A stretch of 64,000 nt of DNA from Candidatus Nomurabacteria bacterium (GTDB lineage Bacteria; Patescibacteriota; Minisyncoccia; Phycocordibacterales; UBA9973): contig JAHFNH010000002.1 of the NCBI GenBank assembly GCA_023267435.1, forward strand, positions 88,706 to 152,705, in the 5' to 3' direction. This document shows positions 3,042 to 58,677 of this stretch, one piece after another. The translations under genes were made by a program, and so were the position numbers. The number at the start of each line of letters is the position of its first letter. Within the stretch, counting starts at the first letter, position 1. Under the pieces are notes generated by a model, which saw only the letters and a program-made list of their open reading frames with translations, was not told the origin of the DNA and searched no databases.

Positions 3042-4178
3042 TTAAATTACAACTCTAGGCAAAAGCGGACTGATACGAGTGGTAATTTCATAGTTAATTG
3101 TATCGATATGAGAGGCCATTTCTTCAACTGATATTTTCTCCTTTCCTTGTGCTCCAATAATCACAACCTCATCTTCAGCCCTAACATTTGATAAATGACT
3201 CACATCTACTACAAGCATATTCATCATAACTCTGCCCAATATTTTACAGCGCGTTCCGCCAATTAACACAAAACCTTTATTGGAAAAACCTCGATCAAAA
3301 CCATCAGCATAACCTTGCGGTATCACTGCTATTTTTGTCACTGAATAAGTCATGAAGGTCAATCCATAACCGATAGTGTACCCTTCTGGTAAAATTTTTA
3401 CTTGAGCTATCTTTGTCTTCCAAGAAAGAACTGGTTTTAGTTCAATTTTATTTTTATATAAATATTCAATTTGAGTAGAAGGCCACAATCCATAAGCACC
3501 GACACCAAGCCGAACAATAGAATTTATGCCTTGATTTTTCTCATAAACCAAAAGCCCTGAAGTTGCCGAAATATGAGTATCTAATTTTTTAAAGCCAAAT
3601 TTTTGCGCAAGTTTCAAAGCCTCTTCGTATCTTTTAATTTGTTTTTTTGCGTGAGTAAAATTATTTGTATCTTCAATATTTGCAAAGTGTGCATACATGC
3701 CGGTAAGTTTTATAAATCTGGATTTCTTAATCTCTGTAAAAATTTCTCCAAGATCTTCTTTTAAGAATCCTTCTCTTCCCAAATATGCATCCACTGAAAT
3801 ATGAACCTCTTGTTTGATTTTATTTTCACCAGCAACCTTTTCTAAATTTCGCAATTGTTCGATTGAAAAAATAGACAAAATGCAACCCAGTTTTATCGTT
3901 TCTAATAAATCAGTCTTCTGTATATACCCAAAAACAAAAGTTTTTTTATTAGTGACCTTTCGCAGTAATTTTAATTCTTCAATACTATCAACCTGTAAAT
4001 AATCGACATACGGCTCGATAATCTTTGCAACTTGATTTTGCCCATGCCCATAAGCGTTGCCTTTAATAGCCACAGACATTTTAATGCCTTTCTTTGCCAC
4101 ACTTTTTAATTGCTTAATATTATGAATTAAATTTTCTTTAGATAATTCAATATAAGCAAGAGGTAAATTTTTGACCAT
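3042..4178 (-). CDS. alr: Alanine racemase
   Basis: PLP-lysine motif VAIKGNAYGHG and overall alanine racemase architecture. Confidence 0.9.
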   Translation of the reverse strand: MVKNLPLAYIELSKENLIHNIKQLKSVAKKGIKMSVAIKGNAYGHGQNQVAKIIEPYVDYLQVDSIEELKLLRKVTNKKTFVFGYIQKTDLLETIKLGCILSIFSIEQLRNLEKVAGENKIKQEVHISVDAYLGREGFLKEDLGEIFTEIKKSRFIKLTGMYAHFANIEDTNNFTHAKKQIKRYEEALKLAQKFGFKKLDTHISATSGLLVYEKNQGINSIVRLGVGAYGLWPSTQIEYLYKNKIELKPVLSWKTKIAQVKILPEGYTIGYGLTFMTYSVTKIAVIPQGYADGFDRGFSNKGFVLIGGTRCKILGRVMMNMLVVDVSHLSNVRAEDEVVIIGAQGKEKISVEEMASHIDTINYEITTRISPLLPRVVI

Positions 4179-16193: not shown

Positions 16194-16688
16194 TTATTTT
16201 TTGGCCAACATTGCGTTGATAATTTCTTCGCCCTTACCTGCAGATACATAACCTTCAACCATTTTACGAACACCGACAGATACAAGCTCTGCGACTTCTT
16301 TTCTGATTGCGTCATCTCCATTTTTCTTTTCTTTTTCTGCATCAAGCTTGGCTTGTCTCAAGATTTCTTCTTTTTCAAGAGTTGCTTTGTCTTTCGCTTC
16401 TTTTACTATTTCTTTACCGTCAGCTTGTGATTGACTGATAATATTTTTAGCATTATCTTTCGCTTCTCTGATTATTTCTTCTTTTTTGAAACCTGCGCCT
16501 TCAAGTTCGACTATTGCTTTTTCAGCATTAGTCAAACCATCCTTTATTTCATTCTCACGATCATCCATCAACTTGCGAAGAGGTTTCGCTGCAATAAAAT
16601 AAAGCGCAATAAAAACAAGCACAAAGTTAAATAACTGCGCGAGCATTATCTTCCAATCTATGTGAAATGTCGAAATTAATTCATTCAT
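16194..16688 (-). CDS. atpF: ATP synthase Fo subunit b
   Basis: Single N-terminal TM plus long charged coiled coil; operon position. Confidence 0.85.
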   Translation of the reverse strand: MNELISTFHIDWKIMLAQLFNFVLVFIALYFIAAKPLRKLMDDRENEIKDGLTNAEKAIVELEGAGFKKEEIIREAKDNAKNIISQSQADGKEIVKEAKDKATLEKEEILRQAKLDAEKEKKNGDDAIRKEVAELVSVGVRKMVEGYVSAGKGEEIINAMLAKK

Positions 16689-16720
16689 GATTTTTCTTTT
16701 TTGTAAATTAAAAAAATTAA

Positions 16721-16767
16721 GGCGTCGTGGGTCCCCTTTCCTATCTTTTCAGAGGGCGAAGGCGCAG
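16721..16767. repeat. E1 repeat element, intergenic copy between atpF and atpE
   Basis: ggcgtcgtgggtcccctttcctatcttttcagagggcgaaggcgcag; two further copies lie in-frame in the FAD oxidase gene (23470..23514, 23929..23973). Confidence 0.85.
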
Positions 16768-16800
16768 AATTTTTTTAAATTTATAAAAAACTTATAAAAA

Positions 16801-17097
<297 letters not shown>

Positions 17098-17116: not shown

Positions 17117-17153
17117 TTTCGCCTCTTCGGCGAATCAGCCGTTGAGGCTGAAA
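17117..17153. repeat. E2 repeat element (double hairpin), intergenic copy between atpE and atpB
   Basis: tttcgccTCTTCggcgaatcagccGTTGAggctgaaa; stems covary with copies at 18951..18986 and 57815..57852. Confidence 0.85.
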
Positions 17154-18857: not shown

Positions 18858-18950
18858 TCTTATATTTCTCCCGTTTTTTAAAAATCGGGCAAAAACTATT
18901 TATAATGCGTAGATACTCTTACCGCTCAATTGGCTTAATTGGTGCCTAAC

Positions 18951-18986
18951 AATCGCCTCATCGGCGATCTGCCGTAGAGGCAGATC
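18951..18986. repeat. E2 repeat element, intergenic copy between the RRM gene and prfA
   Basis: aatcgccTCATCggcgatctgccGTAGAggcagatc. Confidence 0.85.
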
Positions 18987-20051: not shown

Positions 20052-20065
20052 ATGATATAAGAAAA

Positions 20066-20150
20066 AAGCTTCTTAAAATTTTTTACTTCCGAGGGTCCCA
20101 ACCGGTACTCCGGGAAGGGCGCAGGAATAAAAAATTTCAAGAAGCTTTGG
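20066..20150. repeat. ~85-nt extended palindromic element between rpmE and prfA with a GC-rich nested core loosely resembling E1
   Basis: Outer arms aagcttcttaaaatttttt / aaaaaatttcaagaagctt (18 of 19 complementary), inner cttccgagggtcccaaccggtactccgggaagggcgcagg. Confidence 0.6.
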
Positions 20151-22479: not shown

Positions 22480-24282
22480 CTATACCCCATGGTGTGGTTT
22501 TGGGTGTTCTATGGCTAAATGGCTTGCAACGTATTCTTTGGTGCCCATACCTCCCTGAGGCAGTGCGATCTTTTTACCAGGATTGAAAATATTTTTGGGA
22601 TCAAAGATATTCTTAACTTCACCAAATAAAGCATAAATTTTCTCGCCGTACATTTTTTCCAAATATGGCGTACGGATTATTCCATCATTATGTTCCGCGG
22701 TAATAGAACCTTCATAATCTAAAACTAAATCATAAACCTTTTCGGAAAGCTCAGTTATAATTTCAGCTGTATTGCTCCGACTAAAATCCATCAAGGGGAT
22801 AATATGAAAATTACCATCACCTGCGTGTCCGGCAATCGTATATTCTAAATTATAATTTTTCAAAATATTATTAAGTTCTGGAATAAATTTCGGTAAGAAT
22901 TCTGGACGAACAATAATGTCATCGATAAATGGCGCAGTACGTTTTCCAGAAACATGTTTGCGTAATAGATTAAAGCTCTCACGTCTAATGTCCCAATATT
23001 TCCCTGCTTCAGCTTCTGTTTTAGTAATGTGCACTTCTAGTTTAAAATCTTTTATTTTTTCTTTCAAACTTAAACACTGCTTATTTACTTCTGTATCATC
23101 GTCACTAGCAAATTCAGCTAATAAAATTAATTTCGGAAATCCGCCCGTAATCATCATTTTTAATTCCGGCAAGAAACTCCACATGAATTTTATCATTCCA
23201 AAAAATCCTTTAGTCTTTAAAAAATCTGGGAAAAATCGCACTGCAAGCTTCATAGTCTTATCGTCATAAGTTTCCAATGTCTCAAGGTTCGTTTCTAAAA
23301 TAGAATCTACAAGTTTACCCAATGGCGCTAAATCATTCATGAAAATAACCACAAGTTTCGAATGTTTTGGATTTTTAACAAGTTTGAAAGTTATTTCTGT
23401 GGCTATGCCTAAAGTTCCTTGTGAACCTACGAGTAATTTATTCAGATTAAAGACCGGCAAAGAATTTTTAGCGTCGTGGGTTCCCTGTCCTATGTCTCCG
23501 AGGGCGAAGGCGCCTAAATTCTTTGCTGGTTGGTTCTCTATAACATTCCAAAGATAATATCCAGCAGAATTCTTATGAACTTTTGGTTTTGCATTATTTA
23601 TTTCTTCTTGATTATTTTTTATTAAATCATAAAGTTTTTTATAATTTTCTTCTTTCTGTGAAATTTCACTTAAAGGAAAAGATTTCACAACTCTTTCCAC
23701 TCCATCTGAGAAAACAACTTTCGCTTCCATAACATAATCTTCCGTCTTGCCATATTTCAAAGTTCTTTCACCAGCAGAATTATTACCATACATTCCACCC
23801 ATCGCATTGAGACTTTTTGACGCTGTATAACAAGGTAAAATTAAACCTTCGGCTAAAGTTATCTTTTCAAAATCTCGGTAAAACGTTCCAGGCTGAACGG
23901 TAATAGTACTCTCCAGTAAAGGATTTTTAGAGTCGTGGGTTCCCTGTCCTTTGTCTCCGAGGGCGAAGGCTCCAAAATCCTTTACTGGAGAGAAGGACAC
24001 CAACTTATTCATATATTTAGTGAAATCTAAAATAATAGATTCATTTATCGCCCCACCAGACATATCTGTACCAGCGCAACGAGCTGTAATTGAGAGTTCT
24101 GGATACTTGGTTTTATTTTCATTTACCCATTTCACTAAATTCTGTACATCTTCTGAATCTTTTGGAAAAACAACTAACTTTGGTCTAACTTCAAAAATAC
24201 TCGCATCATGCGAATATTTTTTGAGAGTTTCTTCACTATCATCCACATCTCCCCTGAAAAATTTTTTAATTTCTTCTTTCAC
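22480..24282 (-). CDS. FAD-linked oxidase (GlcD / D-lactate dehydrogenase family) carrying two in-frame E1-element insertions
   Basis: FAD-binding PCMH-type region (RCAGTDMSGGA), C-terminal HAGDGNFH motif. Two 15-aa insertions GAFALGD(I/K)GQGTHD(A/S) are encoded by the E1 repeat. Confidence 0.8.
   Translation of the reverse strand: MKEEIKKFFRGDVDDSEETLKKYSHDASIFEVRPKLVVFPKDSEDVQNLVKWVNENKTKYPELSITARCAGTDMSGGAINESIILDFTKYMNKLVSFSPVKDFGAFALGDKGQGTHDSKNPLLESTITVQPGTFYRDFEKITLAEGLILPCYTASKSLNAMGGMYGNNSAGERTLKYGKTEDYVMEAKVVFSDGVERVVKSFPLSEISQKEENYKKLYDLIKNNQEEINNAKPKVHKNSAGYYLWNVIENQPAKNLGAFALGDIGQGTHDAKNSLPVFNLNKLLVGSQGTLGIATEITFKLVKNPKHSKLVVIFMNDLAPLGKLVDSILETNLETLETYDDKTMKLAVRFFPDFLKTKGFFGMIKFMWSFLPELKMMITGGFPKLILLAEFASDDDTEVNKQCLSLKEKIKDFKLEVHITKTEAEAGKYWDIRRESFNLLRKHVSGKRTAPFIDDIIVRPEFLPKFIPELNNILKNYNLEYTIAGHAGDGNFHIIPLMDFSRSNTAEIITELSEKVYDLVLDYEGSITAEHNDGIIRTPYLEKMYGEKIYALFGEVKNIFDPKNIFNPGKKIALPQGGMGTKEYVASHLAIEHPKPHHGV
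23470..23514. repeat. E1 repeat element, in-frame copy inside the FAD oxidase
   Basis: agcgtcgtgggttccctgtcctatgtctccgagggcgaaggcgcc. Confidence 0.85.
23929..23973. repeat. E1 repeat element, second in-frame copy inside the FAD oxidase
   Basis: agagtcgtgggttccctgtcctttgtctccgagggcgaaggctcc. Confidence 0.85.
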
Positions 24283-37562: not shown

Positions 37563-39107
37563 CTAATTTGTTACAACTAATTGATTGGGAGAAGAAACCG
37601 CCAGGTCAAAATCTATCATATATAATCGTGGTACGCGTTTAAAATCAACATTCTCTTTTTCATCCCTAAAGAAACGAAGACAAAAATTGCGTTCATGAGA
37701 ATGGCCGTGTTTTATTTTTAACTTATTTAAAACTTTGATTATTTTATCTTTTTGTTCTCGCAATTCATCCACAAAAATTTCAGTTTTATCCGCCCAATCC
37801 GATAAATTTAAATCTAAAACACCACTATAGACATCGACCAAACCTTCCTTATTTAATTTATAAGATTGTATTGGTTCTATAGGCACATAATCAAAACTAG
37901 CTTCTTTCCATTCAGCGTAATCTTCATAAAGCTTCTGCCAAGTCATAAATGCTTCCGGTTTTATATGTCGTATTATTGTTTTATCTTTTAATTCACCACC
38001 AATCAATGTGAGACCAGAACCAGTTTTTTCAAATTCTTGTCTTGAGAAAGTTTTTTCATCAATTTTTTTATTGTCATATAAGGGTGATTTGATTAGTTCT
38101 TCACCTAACCCTTTTTCTATCAGCAAATTTATTAATTCTTTTTTATTTTCTTCCGGTACTGCCCAAAGCATTTTTACATATGCTTTTTGTATATCGACAT
38201 TGTGATTTTCAATACCCCTTTTTACTTTTTCTAATATTTTTATTTTTAAATTAACCGCATCTTCGTCAGGCACTGATCTCAGTATACCTACAGCTGCGTT
38301 TTGTATTTCAATATTTGGATTTTCCAGACACAAATTAATCAAATAACCTCTTTCTTTATATAATGCATTTTCGATCATTCTCACAGAGATCTTTTGTATT
38401 TCAATACTTGGATTTTCTAATCCCAGTTTAATCAAAGATGTTCTTTCTTCTTCGGGTACCAATCCCATTATTGATGCAGCTGCTTTTTGTATTTCAAAAT
38501 TTTGATTTTCAAGGCATTGTTTAACAAAAACAGATCTGCCTTTATATGGTAAATCTCCAATCATGCCTATATATGCCTTCTGTATTTCAACATTCGGATT
38601 TTCAAGACCCTCTTTTACTTTTTCTACAAGATCTTTTTTAAAAGAATCTTTTTCTTCATCTGACAACAACCAAAACATTCCGGTAGATATCTTTTGTATT
38701 TCAACATTTTTATTTTCAACCCCCAGCTTGATTAGAGATGCCTTATCTTCTTCTGGTGCAAATTCAATCATTTTTACGGAAGTCTTTTGTATATCAATAT
38801 TTGAGTTTTCAAGACCGAGCTTGATTAAAGATGTTCTTTCTTTTTCTGGTGCAGATGTAACCATTTCTGCAAATTCCCTTTGCACTTCAGTTATATGATT
38901 TAAATTTTGCTTCGGGGAAAATTTTTTTTCTTTTAAAGGCGGAGCATTTTCTATTTGTTCTCTAATGAGATTATCTTGATTTTTATCTTTTATATATCTT
39001 TTAAAACTATGTTCTGTTATTGAGTTTTGACCAGAAATCTCATACATTTTCAAGTATTCTGGCGTTATAGATTCTAGTTTTTTGATCTCTAAATTTGATT
39101 TTTCCAT
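37563..39107 (-). CDS. HEAT-like repeat protein with C-terminal atypical protein-kinase-like domain
   Basis: Seven or more ~33-aa repeats (…SLIKLGLENPNxEIQKxSVxMI…); the C-terminal 180 aa carry HGHSHERNF and YMIDFDLAV, reminiscent of RIO/APH catalytic and DFG-like loops. Confidence 0.55.
   Translation of the reverse strand: MEKSNLEIKKLESITPEYLKMYEISGQNSITEHSFKRYIKDKNQDNLIREQIENAPPLKEKKFSPKQNLNHITEVQREFAEMVTSAPEKERTSLIKLGLENSNIDIQKTSVKMIEFAPEEDKASLIKLGVENKNVEIQKISTGMFWLLSDEEKDSFKKDLVEKVKEGLENPNVEIQKAYIGMIGDLPYKGRSVFVKQCLENQNFEIQKAAASIMGLVPEEERTSLIKLGLENPSIEIQKISVRMIENALYKERGYLINLCLENPNIEIQNAAVGILRSVPDEDAVNLKIKILEKVKRGIENHNVDIQKAYVKMLWAVPEENKKELINLLIEKGLGEELIKSPLYDNKKIDEKTFSRQEFEKTGSGLTLIGGELKDKTIIRHIKPEAFMTWQKLYEDYAEWKEASFDYVPIEPIQSYKLNKEGLVDVYSGVLDLNLSDWADKTEIFVDELREQKDKIIKVLNKLKIKHGHSHERNFCLRFFRDEKENVDFKRVPRLYMIDFDLAVSSPNQLVVTN
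38190..38870. repeat. Tandem ~99-nt coding repeats inside the HEAT-repeat gene
   Basis: Recurring …tcttttgtat(a/t)tcaa(t/c)a…ttttcaa…gat(g/c)… units are visible at the nucleotide level. Confidence 0.7.
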
Positions 39108-46857: not shown

Positions 46858-48318
46858 CTATTCTTTTTTAGGTCTCATTAGAGGGAAAATTTGAGTTTCG
46901 CGAATAGGTTTGTCAGCTAGGAACGCGAACAACATTTCACCAAAACCGAAACCACACGTCGGAGGCATACCATGTTCGAGCATTTCTACGAATTCCATAT
47001 CTGGCATCATTGCTTCTTTGTCCCCCGCTTTCAATAATTCTTGTTGAGCTTCGAATCTTTCAGATTGGTCGATGGGATCATTTAATTCGGAGAATCCATT
47101 GCCAACTTCTGATCCAGCGATGATTATTTGAAATCTTTCTGTTAGATCTTTATTATCCAGCATTGATTTTGATAATGGAGAAACAAGTTTTGGATGACCA
47201 GTTAAAAATACCGGACCGGAGATTTGCTTTCGGCAATATTTCCAAAGTGTATCCACCATGCGTTCCATCGTATTGCCATCATAAACAACATGAAGCTCAT
47301 CGAGCTTTTTCTTTACTTCATCATAAGTAGCATCTAATACATCGATACCTGTTTGAGCTTTCACTGTTTCTCGGTAATCTATTTTTTTCCATTCACCACT
47401 CAAATCAAATTTATGTCCGCGTGTTTCGAATTCAGTTTTTCCAAATACATCATTCGCTATTTTTTTATATAATTCTTCGGTGAGTTTCATTCCGTCTTTA
47501 TAATTCGCATAAGCCCAGTAAAATTCCAAATTAGTAAATTCTTGCAAATGATTAGCATCCGAACCTTCATTGCGATAAGCGCGTCCTATTTCAAAAGTCT
47601 TTGGAAAACCTGCCGCCATCAAACGCTTCTGCCAAAGCTCTCCGATAGAGATACGCATATATAAAGGCAGTTTAAAATCTTCATTGTATGTTTTAAAAGG
47701 TGTCGCTTCGGCACCGCCAGTCGTAACTTCCAGCGATGGAGTTTCGACTTCCATAAAACCATGATCTTTCATAAAATTGCGGGCAGTGTCCCAAAATTTA
47801 GTTTTCTTTTCTAATATATCTCTCACTTCCGGATCCATTAAAATATCCAAATATCTTTTTCGAAAACGCTCTTCAATATCTTGCAACCCATGCCATTTTT
47901 CTGGTAATGGCTGTAATGTTTTTGTGAGCATGCGCCAATCTTTCACTTCAACTGTCTTCTCTCCTCTTTTAGTTGTAAAAAATATTCCTTGCACTTCTAC
48001 GAAGTCTCCTATGTCTGTGACTTCATTAAAGAAATCAAATTTATCATCACCGAGAGAATCTTTCTTAAGAAGAGCCTGAAATTGCGCAGTACCATCATTT
48101 AAAGTCAAAAAAATAATCGCACCTTGTCCACGCATCGACATAATTCTGCCGGCAACCCATTTCATCTCGCCAGACTTTTCTAAATCTGAAAAACTCTCAA
48201 TCGCTTCTGCTAAGGAAAGTTCTCTTTTTGATTCTGCTGGATACGGATTAATACCTCTTTCTTTTAAGAGGTTGAGTTTTTTTATTCTAGCGTCTCTAAT
48301 CTCAGCAATTGTAGACAT
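46858..48318 (-). CDS. lysS: Lysyl-tRNA synthetase (class II)
   Basis: Anticodon-binding OB fold and class II motifs 1-3. Confidence 0.93.
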   Translation of the reverse strand: MSTIAEIRDARIKKLNLLKERGINPYPAESKRELSLAEAIESFSDLEKSGEMKWVAGRIMSMRGQGAIIFLTLNDGTAQFQALLKKDSLGDDKFDFFNEVTDIGDFVEVQGIFFTTKRGEKTVEVKDWRMLTKTLQPLPEKWHGLQDIEERFRKRYLDILMDPEVRDILEKKTKFWDTARNFMKDHGFMEVETPSLEVTTGGAEATPFKTYNEDFKLPLYMRISIGELWQKRLMAAGFPKTFEIGRAYRNEGSDANHLQEFTNLEFYWAYANYKDGMKLTEELYKKIANDVFGKTEFETRGHKFDLSGEWKKIDYRETVKAQTGIDVLDATYDEVKKKLDELHVVYDGNTMERMVDTLWKYCRKQISGPVFLTGHPKLVSPLSKSMLDNKDLTERFQIIIAGSEVGNGFSELNDPIDQSERFEAQQELLKAGDKEAMMPDMEFVEMLEHGMPPTCGFGFGEMLFAFLADKPIRETQIFPLMRPKKE

Positions 48319-48327
48319 TATTAATAA

Positions 48328-48795
48328 TTATGATACGTCGATGATTTTATAATTAACTGTGCCACCAGGAGTTTGGAATGAAACACTGTCTCCTTTCTTT
48401 TTTCCAAAAAGAGCTTCGCCGAACGGTGAATGATTTGAAATTTTACCGGCAGCCATATCTGCCTCCTCTGATCCCACAATAAAATAAGTTTTGTTTTCTT
48501 TTGTACCTTCTTTTTCCACCACGACAGTAGAACCGACTTGCGCCGTGTCACCTCCATGTTTTGAAACAACCATTGATGTCTGTAAAATATGTTCTATCTT
48601 TGCAATACGTTCTTCTAATTTACCTTGATCTTCTCTGGCTTGGTGATACTCTGCATTTTCTGAAAGGTCTCCGAGAGATTTGGCGTACTCCAAGGCATCG
48701 ATTATTTCTTTGCGCTTTGGGCCTTTTAAATCTTCAAGCTCAGCTTGAAGCAATTTTTTCTTCTCTTCGGTTATATAATCTGCTGTCTTATCCAT
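48328..48795 (-). CDS. greA: Transcription elongation factor GreA
   Basis: Conserved coiled-coil with acidic tip and C-terminal FKBP-like domain. Confidence 0.9.
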   Translation of the reverse strand: MDKTADYITEEKKKLLQAELEDLKGPKRKEIIDALEYAKSLGDLSENAEYHQAREDQGKLEERIAKIEHILQTSMVVSKHGGDTAQVGSTVVVEKEGTKENKTYFIVGSEEADMAAGKISNHSPFGEALFGKKKGDSVSFQTPGGTVNYKIIDVS

Positions 48796-48917
48796 TAGTT
48801 AAATCTAACTTTTTTCCATTAAAAAGTCAAAAAATGCTTTCAAATTATAAAGATGACGATATTTACACCACGACAAAACTTGCGATAAATTTTTTATATG
48901 ATATTCTATTGGAATAT

Positions 48918-49148
48918 ATGGCAAAAACAATAATAGAAGTTAAGAAAAATCCAAATGAAAATAACGCGAGCATAATGCGCCGTTTTTCTCGTAAGGTTCA
49001 GGAATCAGGCGTAATCCACAAAGTGAAAGGTTCTCGATATAACGAAAGAAAGGAATCAAAGCTTAAGGTTAAAGCTGGAGCTCTAAAGAGACTAGGTAGA
49101 AGAAAAGAAATCGACAAGCTTCGCAAACTAGGCAAATTGGTAAAGTAA
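48918..49148 (+). CDS. rpsU: 30S ribosomal protein S21 (start uncertain; ATG at 48834 would add 28 aa)
   Basis: …IMRRFSRKVQESGVIHKVKGSRYNERKESKLKVKAGALKRLGRRKE… is S21-like. The N-terminal part of ORF 48561..49148 overlaps greA and is rejected. Confidence 0.65.
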   Translation: MAKTIIEVKKNPNENNASIMRRFSRKVQESGVIHKVKGSRYNERKESKLKVKAGALKRLGRRKEIDKLRKLGKLVK

Positions 49149-49151
49149 AAT

Positions 49152-49604
49152 ATGCAGGAAAATTTATCTATTATAAACAAAACAAAAGGCAAGCTTCCGA
49201 GCTTGCCTTTTAACGAGTTGAAAAATAACATCTTGGGCAAAAATTACTCTTGCTCGATTGTTTTCGTCGGAGAAAAAAGATCCAGAGAGTTCAATAAAAA
49301 ATATCGAGATAAAGATAAGTCTACGAATATTTTATCTTTTTGTTTATCAAAAACTGACGGCGAGATGATTCTATGTCCAGCCGTCGCAAAACGCGAATAT
49401 AAAAAATTCGACAGAACTTTTCCAAATTTCCTAGGATTTTTAGTTATCCACGGAATGCTTCATTTGAAAGGAATGGAACATAGTAGTAGAATGGAGAAAG
49501 CGGAACAAAAATATGATCAGAAATATTTCTATCGGGATAGACATAGGATCATCAACGACAAGAGTCGTGGTGGGAGAATTCTTAAAGGGAGAAAAAAATC
49601 CTAA
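49152..49604 (+). CDS. ybeY: rRNA maturation endoribonuclease YbeY
   Basis: HGMLHLKGMEH zinc-binding motif. Confidence 0.85.
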   Translation: MQENLSIINKTKGKLPSLPFNELKNNILGKNYSCSIVFVGEKRSREFNKKYRDKDKSTNILSFCLSKTDGEMILCPAVAKREYKKFDRTFPNFLGFLVIHGMLHLKGMEHSSRMEKAEQKYDQKYFYRDRHRIINDKSRGGRILKGRKKS

Positions 49605-57579: not shown

Positions 57580-58677
57580 ATGACATATATGAAAATACTC
57601 GCAATCGAAACATCCTGCGACGAAACAGGAATAAGTATATTGGAAATAAAAGGAGGAATTAAAAATCCTTCTTTTAGAGTTTTGGCGGACAGCTTGAATT
57701 CTCAAATAAAAATACACGCTCCTTTCGGTGGAGTGTACCCCATGCTAGCCAAAAGAGAACATCAAAAAAATCTTCCGATTTTATTTGAAAGAACATTAAA
57801 AAAAGCGGGTAAAAAAATCGCCTCTTCGGCGATCCGCCGTAGAGGCGGAAAACTATTTGATTTAATAGCTGTCACTTCCGGCCCAGGCCTCGAACCTGCA
57901 CTTTGGACAGGAATAATGTTCGCGCAAGAACTAGCTAAAAAATGGAAAGTTCCCATTGTACCAGTTAATCATATGGAAGGTCATATTCTTTCTGTATTTG
58001 GAAAACAAAAAGGTGAATTCTCCATTCCAAAAATAAAATTCCCTATTCTTTCCTTGCTTGTTTCCGGCGGACATACGGAATTGGTGCTTTCAAAAGATTG
58101 GATGAAATACGAAGTCATCGGCGAGACACTGGATGATGCAGCTGGAGAGGCTTTTGATAAAGTTGCCAGAATGCTCGAACTTCCCTATCCTGGCGGACCG
58201 GAAATTTCAAAGCTGGCAGAACAAGGCAGGAAAACTTTTAAAAATCTTCCGGAAGAAATAAAATTACCTCGCCCGATGATGTACAGTAAAAATTTTGATT
58301 TTTCTTTTTCTGGATTAAAAACTGCCGTATTATACCTAACTCAGAAAATTGGAAAATTAAACGACAAAACTAAAAAGCAGATAGCAACAGAATTTGAAAA
58401 TGCCGTAGTTGAAACTTTAATTTACAAAACAAAAAAAGCTATAGAAAAATACAATATCAAAACAATCGTGGTGGCGGGCGGGGTATCTTCTAATAAACAT
58501 TTAAGAAAAGAAATAAAAAAAATGGTAGGGTTGAAACAAAAAATTCTATTTCCTGGCAAAAAACTTTCTACCGATAATTCTGTGATGATAGGCATAACAG
58601 GATATTTCAGATTTATAAAAAAAGGAAAAAAAATCGGCGCCTCAAAAATAAAAGCTGAAGGATATATGCACCTTTAA
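57580..58677 (+). CDS. tsaD: tRNA N6-adenosine threonylcarbamoyltransferase TsaD (Kae1/Gcp) carrying an in-frame E2-element insertion
   Basis: ILAIETSCDETGISI start and HMEGH metal motif. The 12-aa insert IASSAIRRRGGK sits just before the conserved IAVTSGPG and is encoded by the E2 repeat. Confidence 0.88.
   Translation: MTYMKILAIETSCDETGISILEIKGGIKNPSFRVLADSLNSQIKIHAPFGGVYPMLAKREHQKNLPILFERTLKKAGKKIASSAIRRRGGKLFDLIAVTSGPGLEPALWTGIMFAQELAKKWKVPIVPVNHMEGHILSVFGKQKGEFSIPKIKFPILSLLVSGGHTELVLSKDWMKYEVIGETLDDAAGEAFDKVARMLELPYPGGPEISKLAEQGRKTFKNLPEEIKLPRPMMYSKNFDFSFSGLKTAVLYLTQKIGKLNDKTKKQIATEFENAVVETLIYKTKKAIEKYNIKTIVVAGGVSSNKHLRKEIKKMVGLKQKILFPGKKLSTDNSVMIGITGYFRFIKKGKKIGASKIKAEGYMHL
57815..57852. 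repeat. E2 repeat element, in-frame copy inside tsaD
   Basis: aaatcgccTCTTCggcgatccgccGTAGAggcggaaaa. Confidence 0.85.

Follow-up and report, generated by a model that had tools for sequence, protein, structure and literature searches.

Patescibacteria (CPR) have genomes that are among the smallest and most streamlined of bacteria. The GC clusters, double-hairpin elements, and byp elements of fungal mitochondria are GC-rich palindromic islands that occur as multiple families in very AT-rich genomes; like the repeat described here, they can be present or absent at orthologous sites and in some cases are located in coding regions. The RNase III hairpins of phage T7 and the intercistronic REP stabilisers of E. 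coli are sense-oriented intercistronic hairpins of polycistronic mRNAs and have a conserved asymmetric internal loop. Rickettsia palindromic elements (RPEs) are found unusually often in frame in unrelated housekeeping ORFs, where they add a fold-compatible peptide segment (PMC10969869). Here we analyze a repeat, E1, found in a 64,000-nucleotide stretch of a Candidatus Nomurabacteria genome (the window). E1 is real, widespread, and previously undescribed in these bacteria, and is most likely a clade-specific, non-autonomous palindromic repeat family of Nomurabacteria/Paceibacteria-type Patescibacteria, to which RPEs are analogous. Our preferred reading, to which we give a probability of roughly 0.55, is that E1 is an RPE-like selfish palindromic repeat, translated inside genes and constrained at some gene boundaries.

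The copies of E1 in the window, the genes around them, and a hairpin of a sister family (E2) are as follows.

16194-16688, minus strand: atpF, flanking E1 copy 1
16705-16781, minus strand: E1 copy 1, an intergenic hairpin with its core at 16722-16765 and a diverged centre
16801-17043, minus strand: atpE, flanking E1 copy 1
20065-20148, minus strand: E2 sister-family hairpin, with a 21-bp AT stem and a 42-nt GC core (z = -6.2)
22480-24282, minus strand: FAD-linked oxidase of 600 aa, PF01565 (FAD_binding_4) and PF02913 (FAD-oxidase_C)
23453-23530, minus strand: E1 copy 2, an in-frame insert at FAD-oxidase site 2, encoding ..QPAKNLGAFALGDIGQGTHDAKNSLPV..; core at 23471-23513
23907-23994, minus strand: E1 copy 3, an in-frame insert at FAD-oxidase site 1, encoding ..SPVKDFGAFALGDKGQGTHDSKNPLL..; core at 23930-23972

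The original prediction had recognized three GC-rich cores, and we confirmed their positions, the placement of copy 1 in the atpF/atpE spacer and of copies 2 and 3 within the FAD-oxidase ORF, and the single orientation common to all three. The sense (functional) strand of E1 is the minus strand of the window, and all genes in that part are on the minus strand. The G+C content of the window is 35%, and the cores are therefore clear GC islands, as had been proposed. In the 64-kb window, the 5′ arm GCGTCGTGGGTNCCC has three matches with zero to one mismatch (0.44 expected even at three mismatches), and the 3′ arm GAGGGCGAAGGCGC matches at the same three places, with one additional three-mismatch chance match; a core profile search of the 64 kb returned only the three E1 copies, with E-values of 5e-12 to 1.5e-15. 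The unit had been put at ~45 nt, but the real unit is the hairpin of 77-88 nt listed above, in which AT-rich arms of 14-21 bp, overlooked previously, flank the cores; the stem of copy 3 is 21-23 bp. Nor is a small CCCT/AGGG hairpin the defining feature, as had been thought, E1 being defined by a long variable outer stem together with a conserved core. Copy 1 fills the spacer from the atpE stop to the atpF start. Copies 2 and 3 are 88% identical across 76 nt, the differences in their arms are compensatory (C-G to T-A, A-T to G-C, and GCG/CGC to GAG/CTC), and their folding z-scores are -2.3 and -5.0, respectively.

More generally, E1 is a palindromic hairpin of 75-100 nt, with a conserved, asymmetric GC-rich core of ~44 nt (43, 44 or 46 nt in different copies) atop variable AT-rich arms. 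On the sense strand the core reads GAG/GCG-CCUUCG-CCCU-CGGAG..loop..GGAC-AGGG-RACCCACGA-CUC/CGC, and the consensus of 116 aligned copies is ...AAAAAATTTTT GAG CCTTCG CCCTC GGAGTCATAAGGAC AGGG AACCCACGA CTC TTAAAATTTTT... Arm sequence differs from copy to copy, yet complementarity is retained and the arms are near-perfect, with a mean of 24 paired bases out of 28 examined; the inner 12-15 nt are semi-conserved between copies, and the outer part is locus-specific. Double changes occur in 22 of the 23 column pairs of the outer stem, with a clear peak at register 0, and number 635 cells compared with 233 ± 12 in shuffles. The closing helix is either GAG/CUC or GCG/CGC (71:41) and is unpaired in only four cells. 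The CCCU/AGGG helix does not vary among the aligned copies, partly because it sits within the search pattern, and because it is invariant, covariation neither backs nor refutes the pairing; the invariance of the core over ~49 species is likewise in part an ascertainment effect, as the scan accepted exact matches only. In E1 itself the apical GUC/GAC helix is paired in only about half of the copies, and it covaries across sister families (CCGG/CCGG, UCGG/CCGA, UCAG/CUGA, and GAC/GUC).

A conserved loop on a covarying stem is the typical architecture of a functional RNA, and E1 could be mainly a cis-acting RNA signal of the host, a "punctuation" hairpin between cistrons whose long stem and asymmetric internal loop are read by a putative clade-specific factor, with the copies in ORFs being tolerated spill-over. 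Candidate roles would be RNase III-type processing, 3′-end protection, attenuation, or stop-start translational coupling. We regard such a signal as possible but doubtful. The RNA-specific wobble signature that we looked for in the arms was not found, with 113 G-U pairs on the sense strand and 138 on the antisense strand; the transcribed strand has no excess of G-U over A-C mismatches, and G-T and A-C mismatches are equally common. Without a strand bias of G-U pairs, the palindrome looks to be maintained at the DNA level, not by RNA-specific selection. Rfam 15 also gave no family, either in E-value scans of the window and a typical copy or in a gathering scan of 16 loci, the only matches to E1 being weak, generic-hairpin ones far below thresholds.

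An exact search for both E1 arms across one genome per species yielded at least 115 loci. Among the matches listed, at least 110 are on AT-rich contigs of ~49 Patescibacteria assemblies, mostly named as Candidatus Nomurabacteria, Paceibacterota or Patescibacteria, and the highest number in any one assembly is 15 exact-pattern copies, in MFTY01. These further copies bear out the proposal that the three in the window belong to a dispersed repeat family and do not arise by chance. Five matches in GC-rich genomes (69-74% G+C; Actinobacteria and others) lack AT arms and are chance matches, and the exact pattern has no matches in viral contigs. A protein-level search with a concatenated E1-peptide query returned nothing, a single peptide being too short to serve as a query. 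We note that several E1 carriers of ~32% G+C (L046, L113, L106, and several 'Saccharibacteria' TPA assemblies) are labelled Burkholderiales, Woesearchaeota, or Saccharibacteria, and these are probably mis-binned or mislabelled Paceibacteria contigs. For binning, the E1 core provides a sharp marker of the clade.

E1 has a marked polarity, with GCCTTCGCCCTC...GGGRACCCACGAC lying on the mRNA-like strand in 89 of 94 scorable copies. Using simple ORF-based gene maps, genic copies are sense to the host gene at 31:2 (31 of 33) and copies between tandem genes are sense at 58:3 (58 of 61); nine copies are in divergent spacers and four in convergent ones. Sense orientation of 95% of copies is in keeping with a cis-acting RNA signal, but the greater number in divergent than in convergent spacers is not. 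Because ~85% of genes are co-oriented with replication, the polarity is compatible with a link to transcription or with a link to replication, and the few discordant loci are ambiguous between the two. In the window, genes change from mostly minus-strand to mostly plus-strand at ~48000-49500 and GC skew changes sign at ~48 kb; this switch is probably the replication origin.

Thirty-three of the ~115 copies (~30%, among the matches listed) lie within long ORFs. Their hosts include LeuRS (two sites), LigA (NAD-dependent DNA ligase), PheT (PheRS beta), the CCA-adding enzyme, MnmA (two sites), UvrC, RsmH, and the FAD oxidase. All 33 are free of stops and preserve the downstream frame, and the insert lengths are multiples of three despite cores of 43, 44 or 46 nt; intergenic copies commonly carry stops, and copy 1 has a TGA in the frame that the genic copies use. 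Three reading frames are used, giving GAFALGDxGQGTHD, GAFALGDKRTGDPRR (in which the core is one nucleotide longer), and LSLRPRSxKDREPTT, and because three different frames are open, it is the nucleotide sequence that is conserved and not a peptide. The potential of the two genic copies in the window for in-frame translation had been missed. The FAD-oxidase ORF is intact with its two E1 inserts, and in an AF2 model of the protein (pTM 0.79) pLDDT falls below 50 at residues 103-122 (copy 3) and 252-273 (copy 2). Genic E1 is carried in the mRNA and, we infer from the open frames, is translated as a low-confidence surface loop of 25-30 residues. In L075, the LeuRS gene contains an in-frame tandem pair (3407-3476 and 3479-3548) from another GC-core hairpin family, which encodes the peptide VDPVRERSPQGDRSTASGRAFSN twice, and a NUDIX domain insert is present in both LeuRS genes examined.

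That genic copies might instead go untranslated, being excised from the mRNA or skipped by the ribosome in an intron- or byp-like manner, is suggested by the presence of a stable hairpin inside ORFs and by GC islands in an AT-rich genome, which recall the mitochondrial byp elements. We consider this highly improbable: 33 of 33 ORF copies are open and frame-preserving, stops are common in the copies between genes, and insert lengths are adjusted to multiples of three, and the untranslated reading is disfavoured. The genic copies also weigh against a cis-acting RNA signal, as about a third of all copies are in essential ORFs, and cleaving or terminating the transcript there would do harm.

The two FAD-oxidase insertion sites were compared across 120 orthologues with 67-82% identity and were found to be empty, or to contain E1, E2-type cores (GLTLPGVPGGTHTVQN), or other cores. 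In L043, E1 is reversed (antisense) at site 2, and in L069 (~3088-3340) site 1 has three stacked or nested E1 copies in different frames. L119 and L120 have a perfect palindrome in common, TGGAATATTCCTGAGGAAAATTTT/..., and differ by exactly a 60-nt core plus one copy of AAAATTTT; L123 and L008 have a stem-only hairpin of 14-17 bp that is related to the filled site of L117. The core is thus a separable module, present or absent on the same arms.

Such comparisons raise the prospect, which we think unlikely, that the GC core alone is mobile, and is inserted into, and precisely lost from, the centres of AT-rich palindromes as folded lagging-strand single-stranded DNA. This would be catalyzed by a putative HUH-type or recombinase enzyme, and polarity would follow replication, not transcription. 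Core presence and absence on otherwise identical arms (L119 versus L120; L117 versus L123 and L008) fits mobility of this type, as do the occupation of the same site by different core families and in both orientations and the symmetry of mismatches between strands. Because gene orientation follows replication, the observed 95% co-orientation is also what a replication-polar element would show. In addition, the outermost arm bases, although only these (4-7 bp) and only sometimes, coincide with short host palindromes at two FAD-oxidase sites. However, an 8-nt direct repeat borders the segment by which L119 and L120 differ, and slippage deletion explains this difference; hairpin-promoted slippage deletion explains the core-present/core-absent cases, although insertion of the core into a palindrome already in place may also account for them. 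Moreover, the insertion between MYG1 and obg (see below) is of a whole unit with its arms, copies 2 and 3 in the window have arms as well as core in common, coreless AT hairpins are rare, and no candidate enzyme was found, the RAYT-like genes carrying other palindromes. An origin of the arms by inverted duplication of host flanks is unsupported at FAD-oxidase site 2 and at the MYG1-obg junction.

Between genes, E1 constitutes the whole spacer. In 50 scorable intergenic cases the hairpin spans the region from the stop codon of a housekeeping gene to just before the next start, with gene pairs that include ftsQ-dus, x-dnaX, MYG1-obg, ftsX-pyrG, and gatC-gatA. The MYG1-obg junction is only 2-4 nt in L117 and L118 and contains an entire 96-nt unit in eight other genomes, in which core and arms are ~94% identical (5′ arm) compared with ~51% at obg third codon positions. 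For 64 orthologous pairs, which are heterogeneous, arms are ~80% identical, compared with 52% at third positions and 55% for non-orthologous arms. Arm identity so far above that of third codon positions argues for purifying selection, and hence function, over selfish neutrality, and these alignments indicate that purifying selection acts on at least some intergenic E1 hairpins. E1 occupies the atpE-atpF spacer of the window; in this spacer L037 and L085 have a 21-bp AT hairpin without a core, and L118 has a different core family.

The exact stop-to-start span, the conservation of orthologous copies far beyond synonymous sites, and the retention of a long hairpin in the atpE-atpF spacer of four genomes with the core differing or absent speak for a cis-acting RNA signal. 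Against it, the MYG1-obg junction is a spacer of 2-4 nt in related genomes, and a terminator scan makes no call at E1 while ordinary AAAA-stem-TTTT terminators are present elsewhere in the window. An intrinsic terminator would have a short GC-rich stem, a loop of 3-8 nt, and a U tract after it, and would lie at the 3′ end of a transcription unit; E1 was rejected as one on the basis of that scan and of the copies inside ORFs and in divergent spacers; the same scan gave no promoter calls at E1. Downstream of E1 in L056, L115, L095, L081, L066, and L038 there are extended -10-like TGnTATAAT boxes, and their location only 6-9 nt before the ATG suggests frequent use of leaderless mRNAs by these bacteria.

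The reading of E1 as a mobile element in the original prediction is thus partly supported. Presence and absence, opposite orientation, stacking, and differing positions within one gene family all favour mobility. Two observations had been proposed as jointly contradicting it, the lack of further copies and presence at orthologous positions in distant relatives, and only the second was found: E1 does occur at orthologous positions in diverged genomes. As these orthologous copies are conserved well beyond synonymous sites, neutral mobile junk is by itself an incomplete description.

E1 has relatives. The palindrome at 20065-20148 had been suggested to be a divergent one, and this holds, with the same architecture, the same polarity, and copies that are found in further genomes and also at the FAD-oxidase sites used by E1. 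This E2 hairpin fills the spacer from the rpmE stop to the prfA start and, like E1, has a closing helix, a CCC/GGG helix, an apical hairpin, and a 3′ ACCC loop; the family also occupies the FAD-oxidase sites in L116 and L117. A longer GC-core hairpin family (..GGGGTTT.GAGCG.GACGGCG.G...CAGGATTTT..AAAATCCGTACCGG..) is present in L118 (17244-17386), L047 (4062-4172), and L088 (7100-7186), and fills the atpE-atpF spacer in a relative with 43% G+C. A second GC-rich repeat family in the window (17119-17150, 18948-18984, and 57813-57849) consists of two adjacent 5-bp GC hairpins (..GCCUC.ACGGC.GA-U-CGCCGA.GAGGCGA) whose stems covary (CAGCC/CUGCC/CCGCC with their partners); two copies are in the atpB-atpE and prfA-RRM-protein spacers, and no Rfam match was found for this family. 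Other repeats and insertions include five to seven tandem 93-nt (31-codon) units at 38170-38875 of the window, within the ORF 37563-39107 (minus strand), and a group I intron (Rfam, 65 bits) adjoining a tRNA gene in L005 (1531-1755).

Several described classes of element were considered and set aside. E1 is not the cognate repeat of a REP/REPIN-RAYT system, as the RAYT-like genes are flanked by their own palindromes, unrelated to E1; the strictly extragenic location of REPs is also at odds with the 33 copies inside ORFs. The RAYT-like genes code for Y1 (Y1_Tnp, IS200-like) transposases and are in L117 (14677-15318), L041 (5268-5912), L109 (4981-5550), and L091 (146-676), and each has on either side a short palindrome specific to that genome, such as TACATAGGAGNNTCCTATGTA, in a REPtron-like arrangement. 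No general target-site duplication of the MITE type was found, the flanks of E1 being inverted and not direct repeats, and direct repeats of the AAAATTTT type occur only where the arm is self-complementary. No transposase or master element for E1 was found, and conservation is highest at the centre and lowest at the terminal repeats, the reverse of a classical MITE. An integron attC site, which follows a cassette ORF and has conserved R''/R' ends (RYYYAAC...GTTRRRY) around a variable centre, does not fit because the centre of E1 is conserved and its ends vary; the flanking genes are syntenic housekeeping genes. A literature search on palindromic or in-frame repeats in CPR bacteria found nothing relevant.

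We therefore return to E1 as an RPE-like selfish repeat. It has colonized many unrelated housekeeping loci with one polarity, replacing the whole spacer between genes, and is seen inside genes only with the frame kept open. Spread may involve a strand-specific step, which would either be coupled to transcription or have folded single-stranded DNA at the fork as its substrate, and would be performed by a putative trans factor that reads the conserved core. What keeps the arms perfect would be template switching or hairpin-templated correction, selection for the hairpin, or both; the equal frequencies of G-T and A-C mismatches point to upkeep of the DNA rather than the RNA. In the polycistronic transcript, intergenic copies may play a cis role, gained later or present from the start, for example as a cistron-boundary hairpin, which would explain conservation beyond the neutral expectation. 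More tentatively, and with low confidence, we speculate that the invariant core is read by a dedicated, putative clade factor, which could be a strand-polar enzyme that inserts or excises the core, or an RNA-binding or processing factor for which E1 would be a genome-wide cistron-boundary signal. In its enzyme form, the factor would act at the centre of an AT-rich palindrome via a folded single-strand intermediate and, if true, this would be a new type of mobile module, one that targets hairpin loops and, in ultra-small genomes, remodels essential proteins.

A streamlined clade thus tolerates, and partly conserves, dozens of hairpin repeats of 75-100 nt, and aminoacyl-tRNA synthetases, DNA ligase, and UvrC are among the proteins with in-frame inserts. 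E1 would be a second and independent case of the RPE phenomenon, that of proteins gaining repeat-driven segments, and partly accounts for the length variation of CPR proteins and for their odd Gly-rich or Arg-rich loops; annotators and structure predictors should be cautious of such repeat-derived inserts. It also poses the questions of what reads the invariant 44-nt core and what causes the single polarity.

Among known systems, RPEs and E1 are alike in being short palindromic repeats of several families in reduced, AT-rich genomes, both intergenic and in frame within genes, with no transposase known. They differ in phylum and in size (75-100 nt for E1 and ~100-150 nt for RPEs), and since its hosts are Patescibacteria, E1 is at most an RPE analogue, likened by kind and not as a sequence family. 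Unlike RPEs, the conserved part of E1 is its GC-rich centre, with arms that vary by compensatory changes; E1 also uses three reading frames, with no conserved peptide resulting, and has a strong polarity in its intergenic copies too. REP/REPIN elements and MITEs resemble E1 as dispersed, hairpin-forming, non-autonomous repeats that are often located between co-transcribed genes, although REPs are extragenic and have a conserved stem, whereas for E1 no general target-site duplication or conserved terminal repeat was found. Compared with the GC and byp elements of fungal mitochondria, E1 is bacterial, has long AT arms, and is always frame-preserving, such that bypassing need not be invoked. In its lower and upper stems E1 is similar to the T7 RNase III hairpins and the E. 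coli REP stabilisers, a likeness that would be one of functional analogy only, and unlike these hairpins, E1 is also found inside ORFs.
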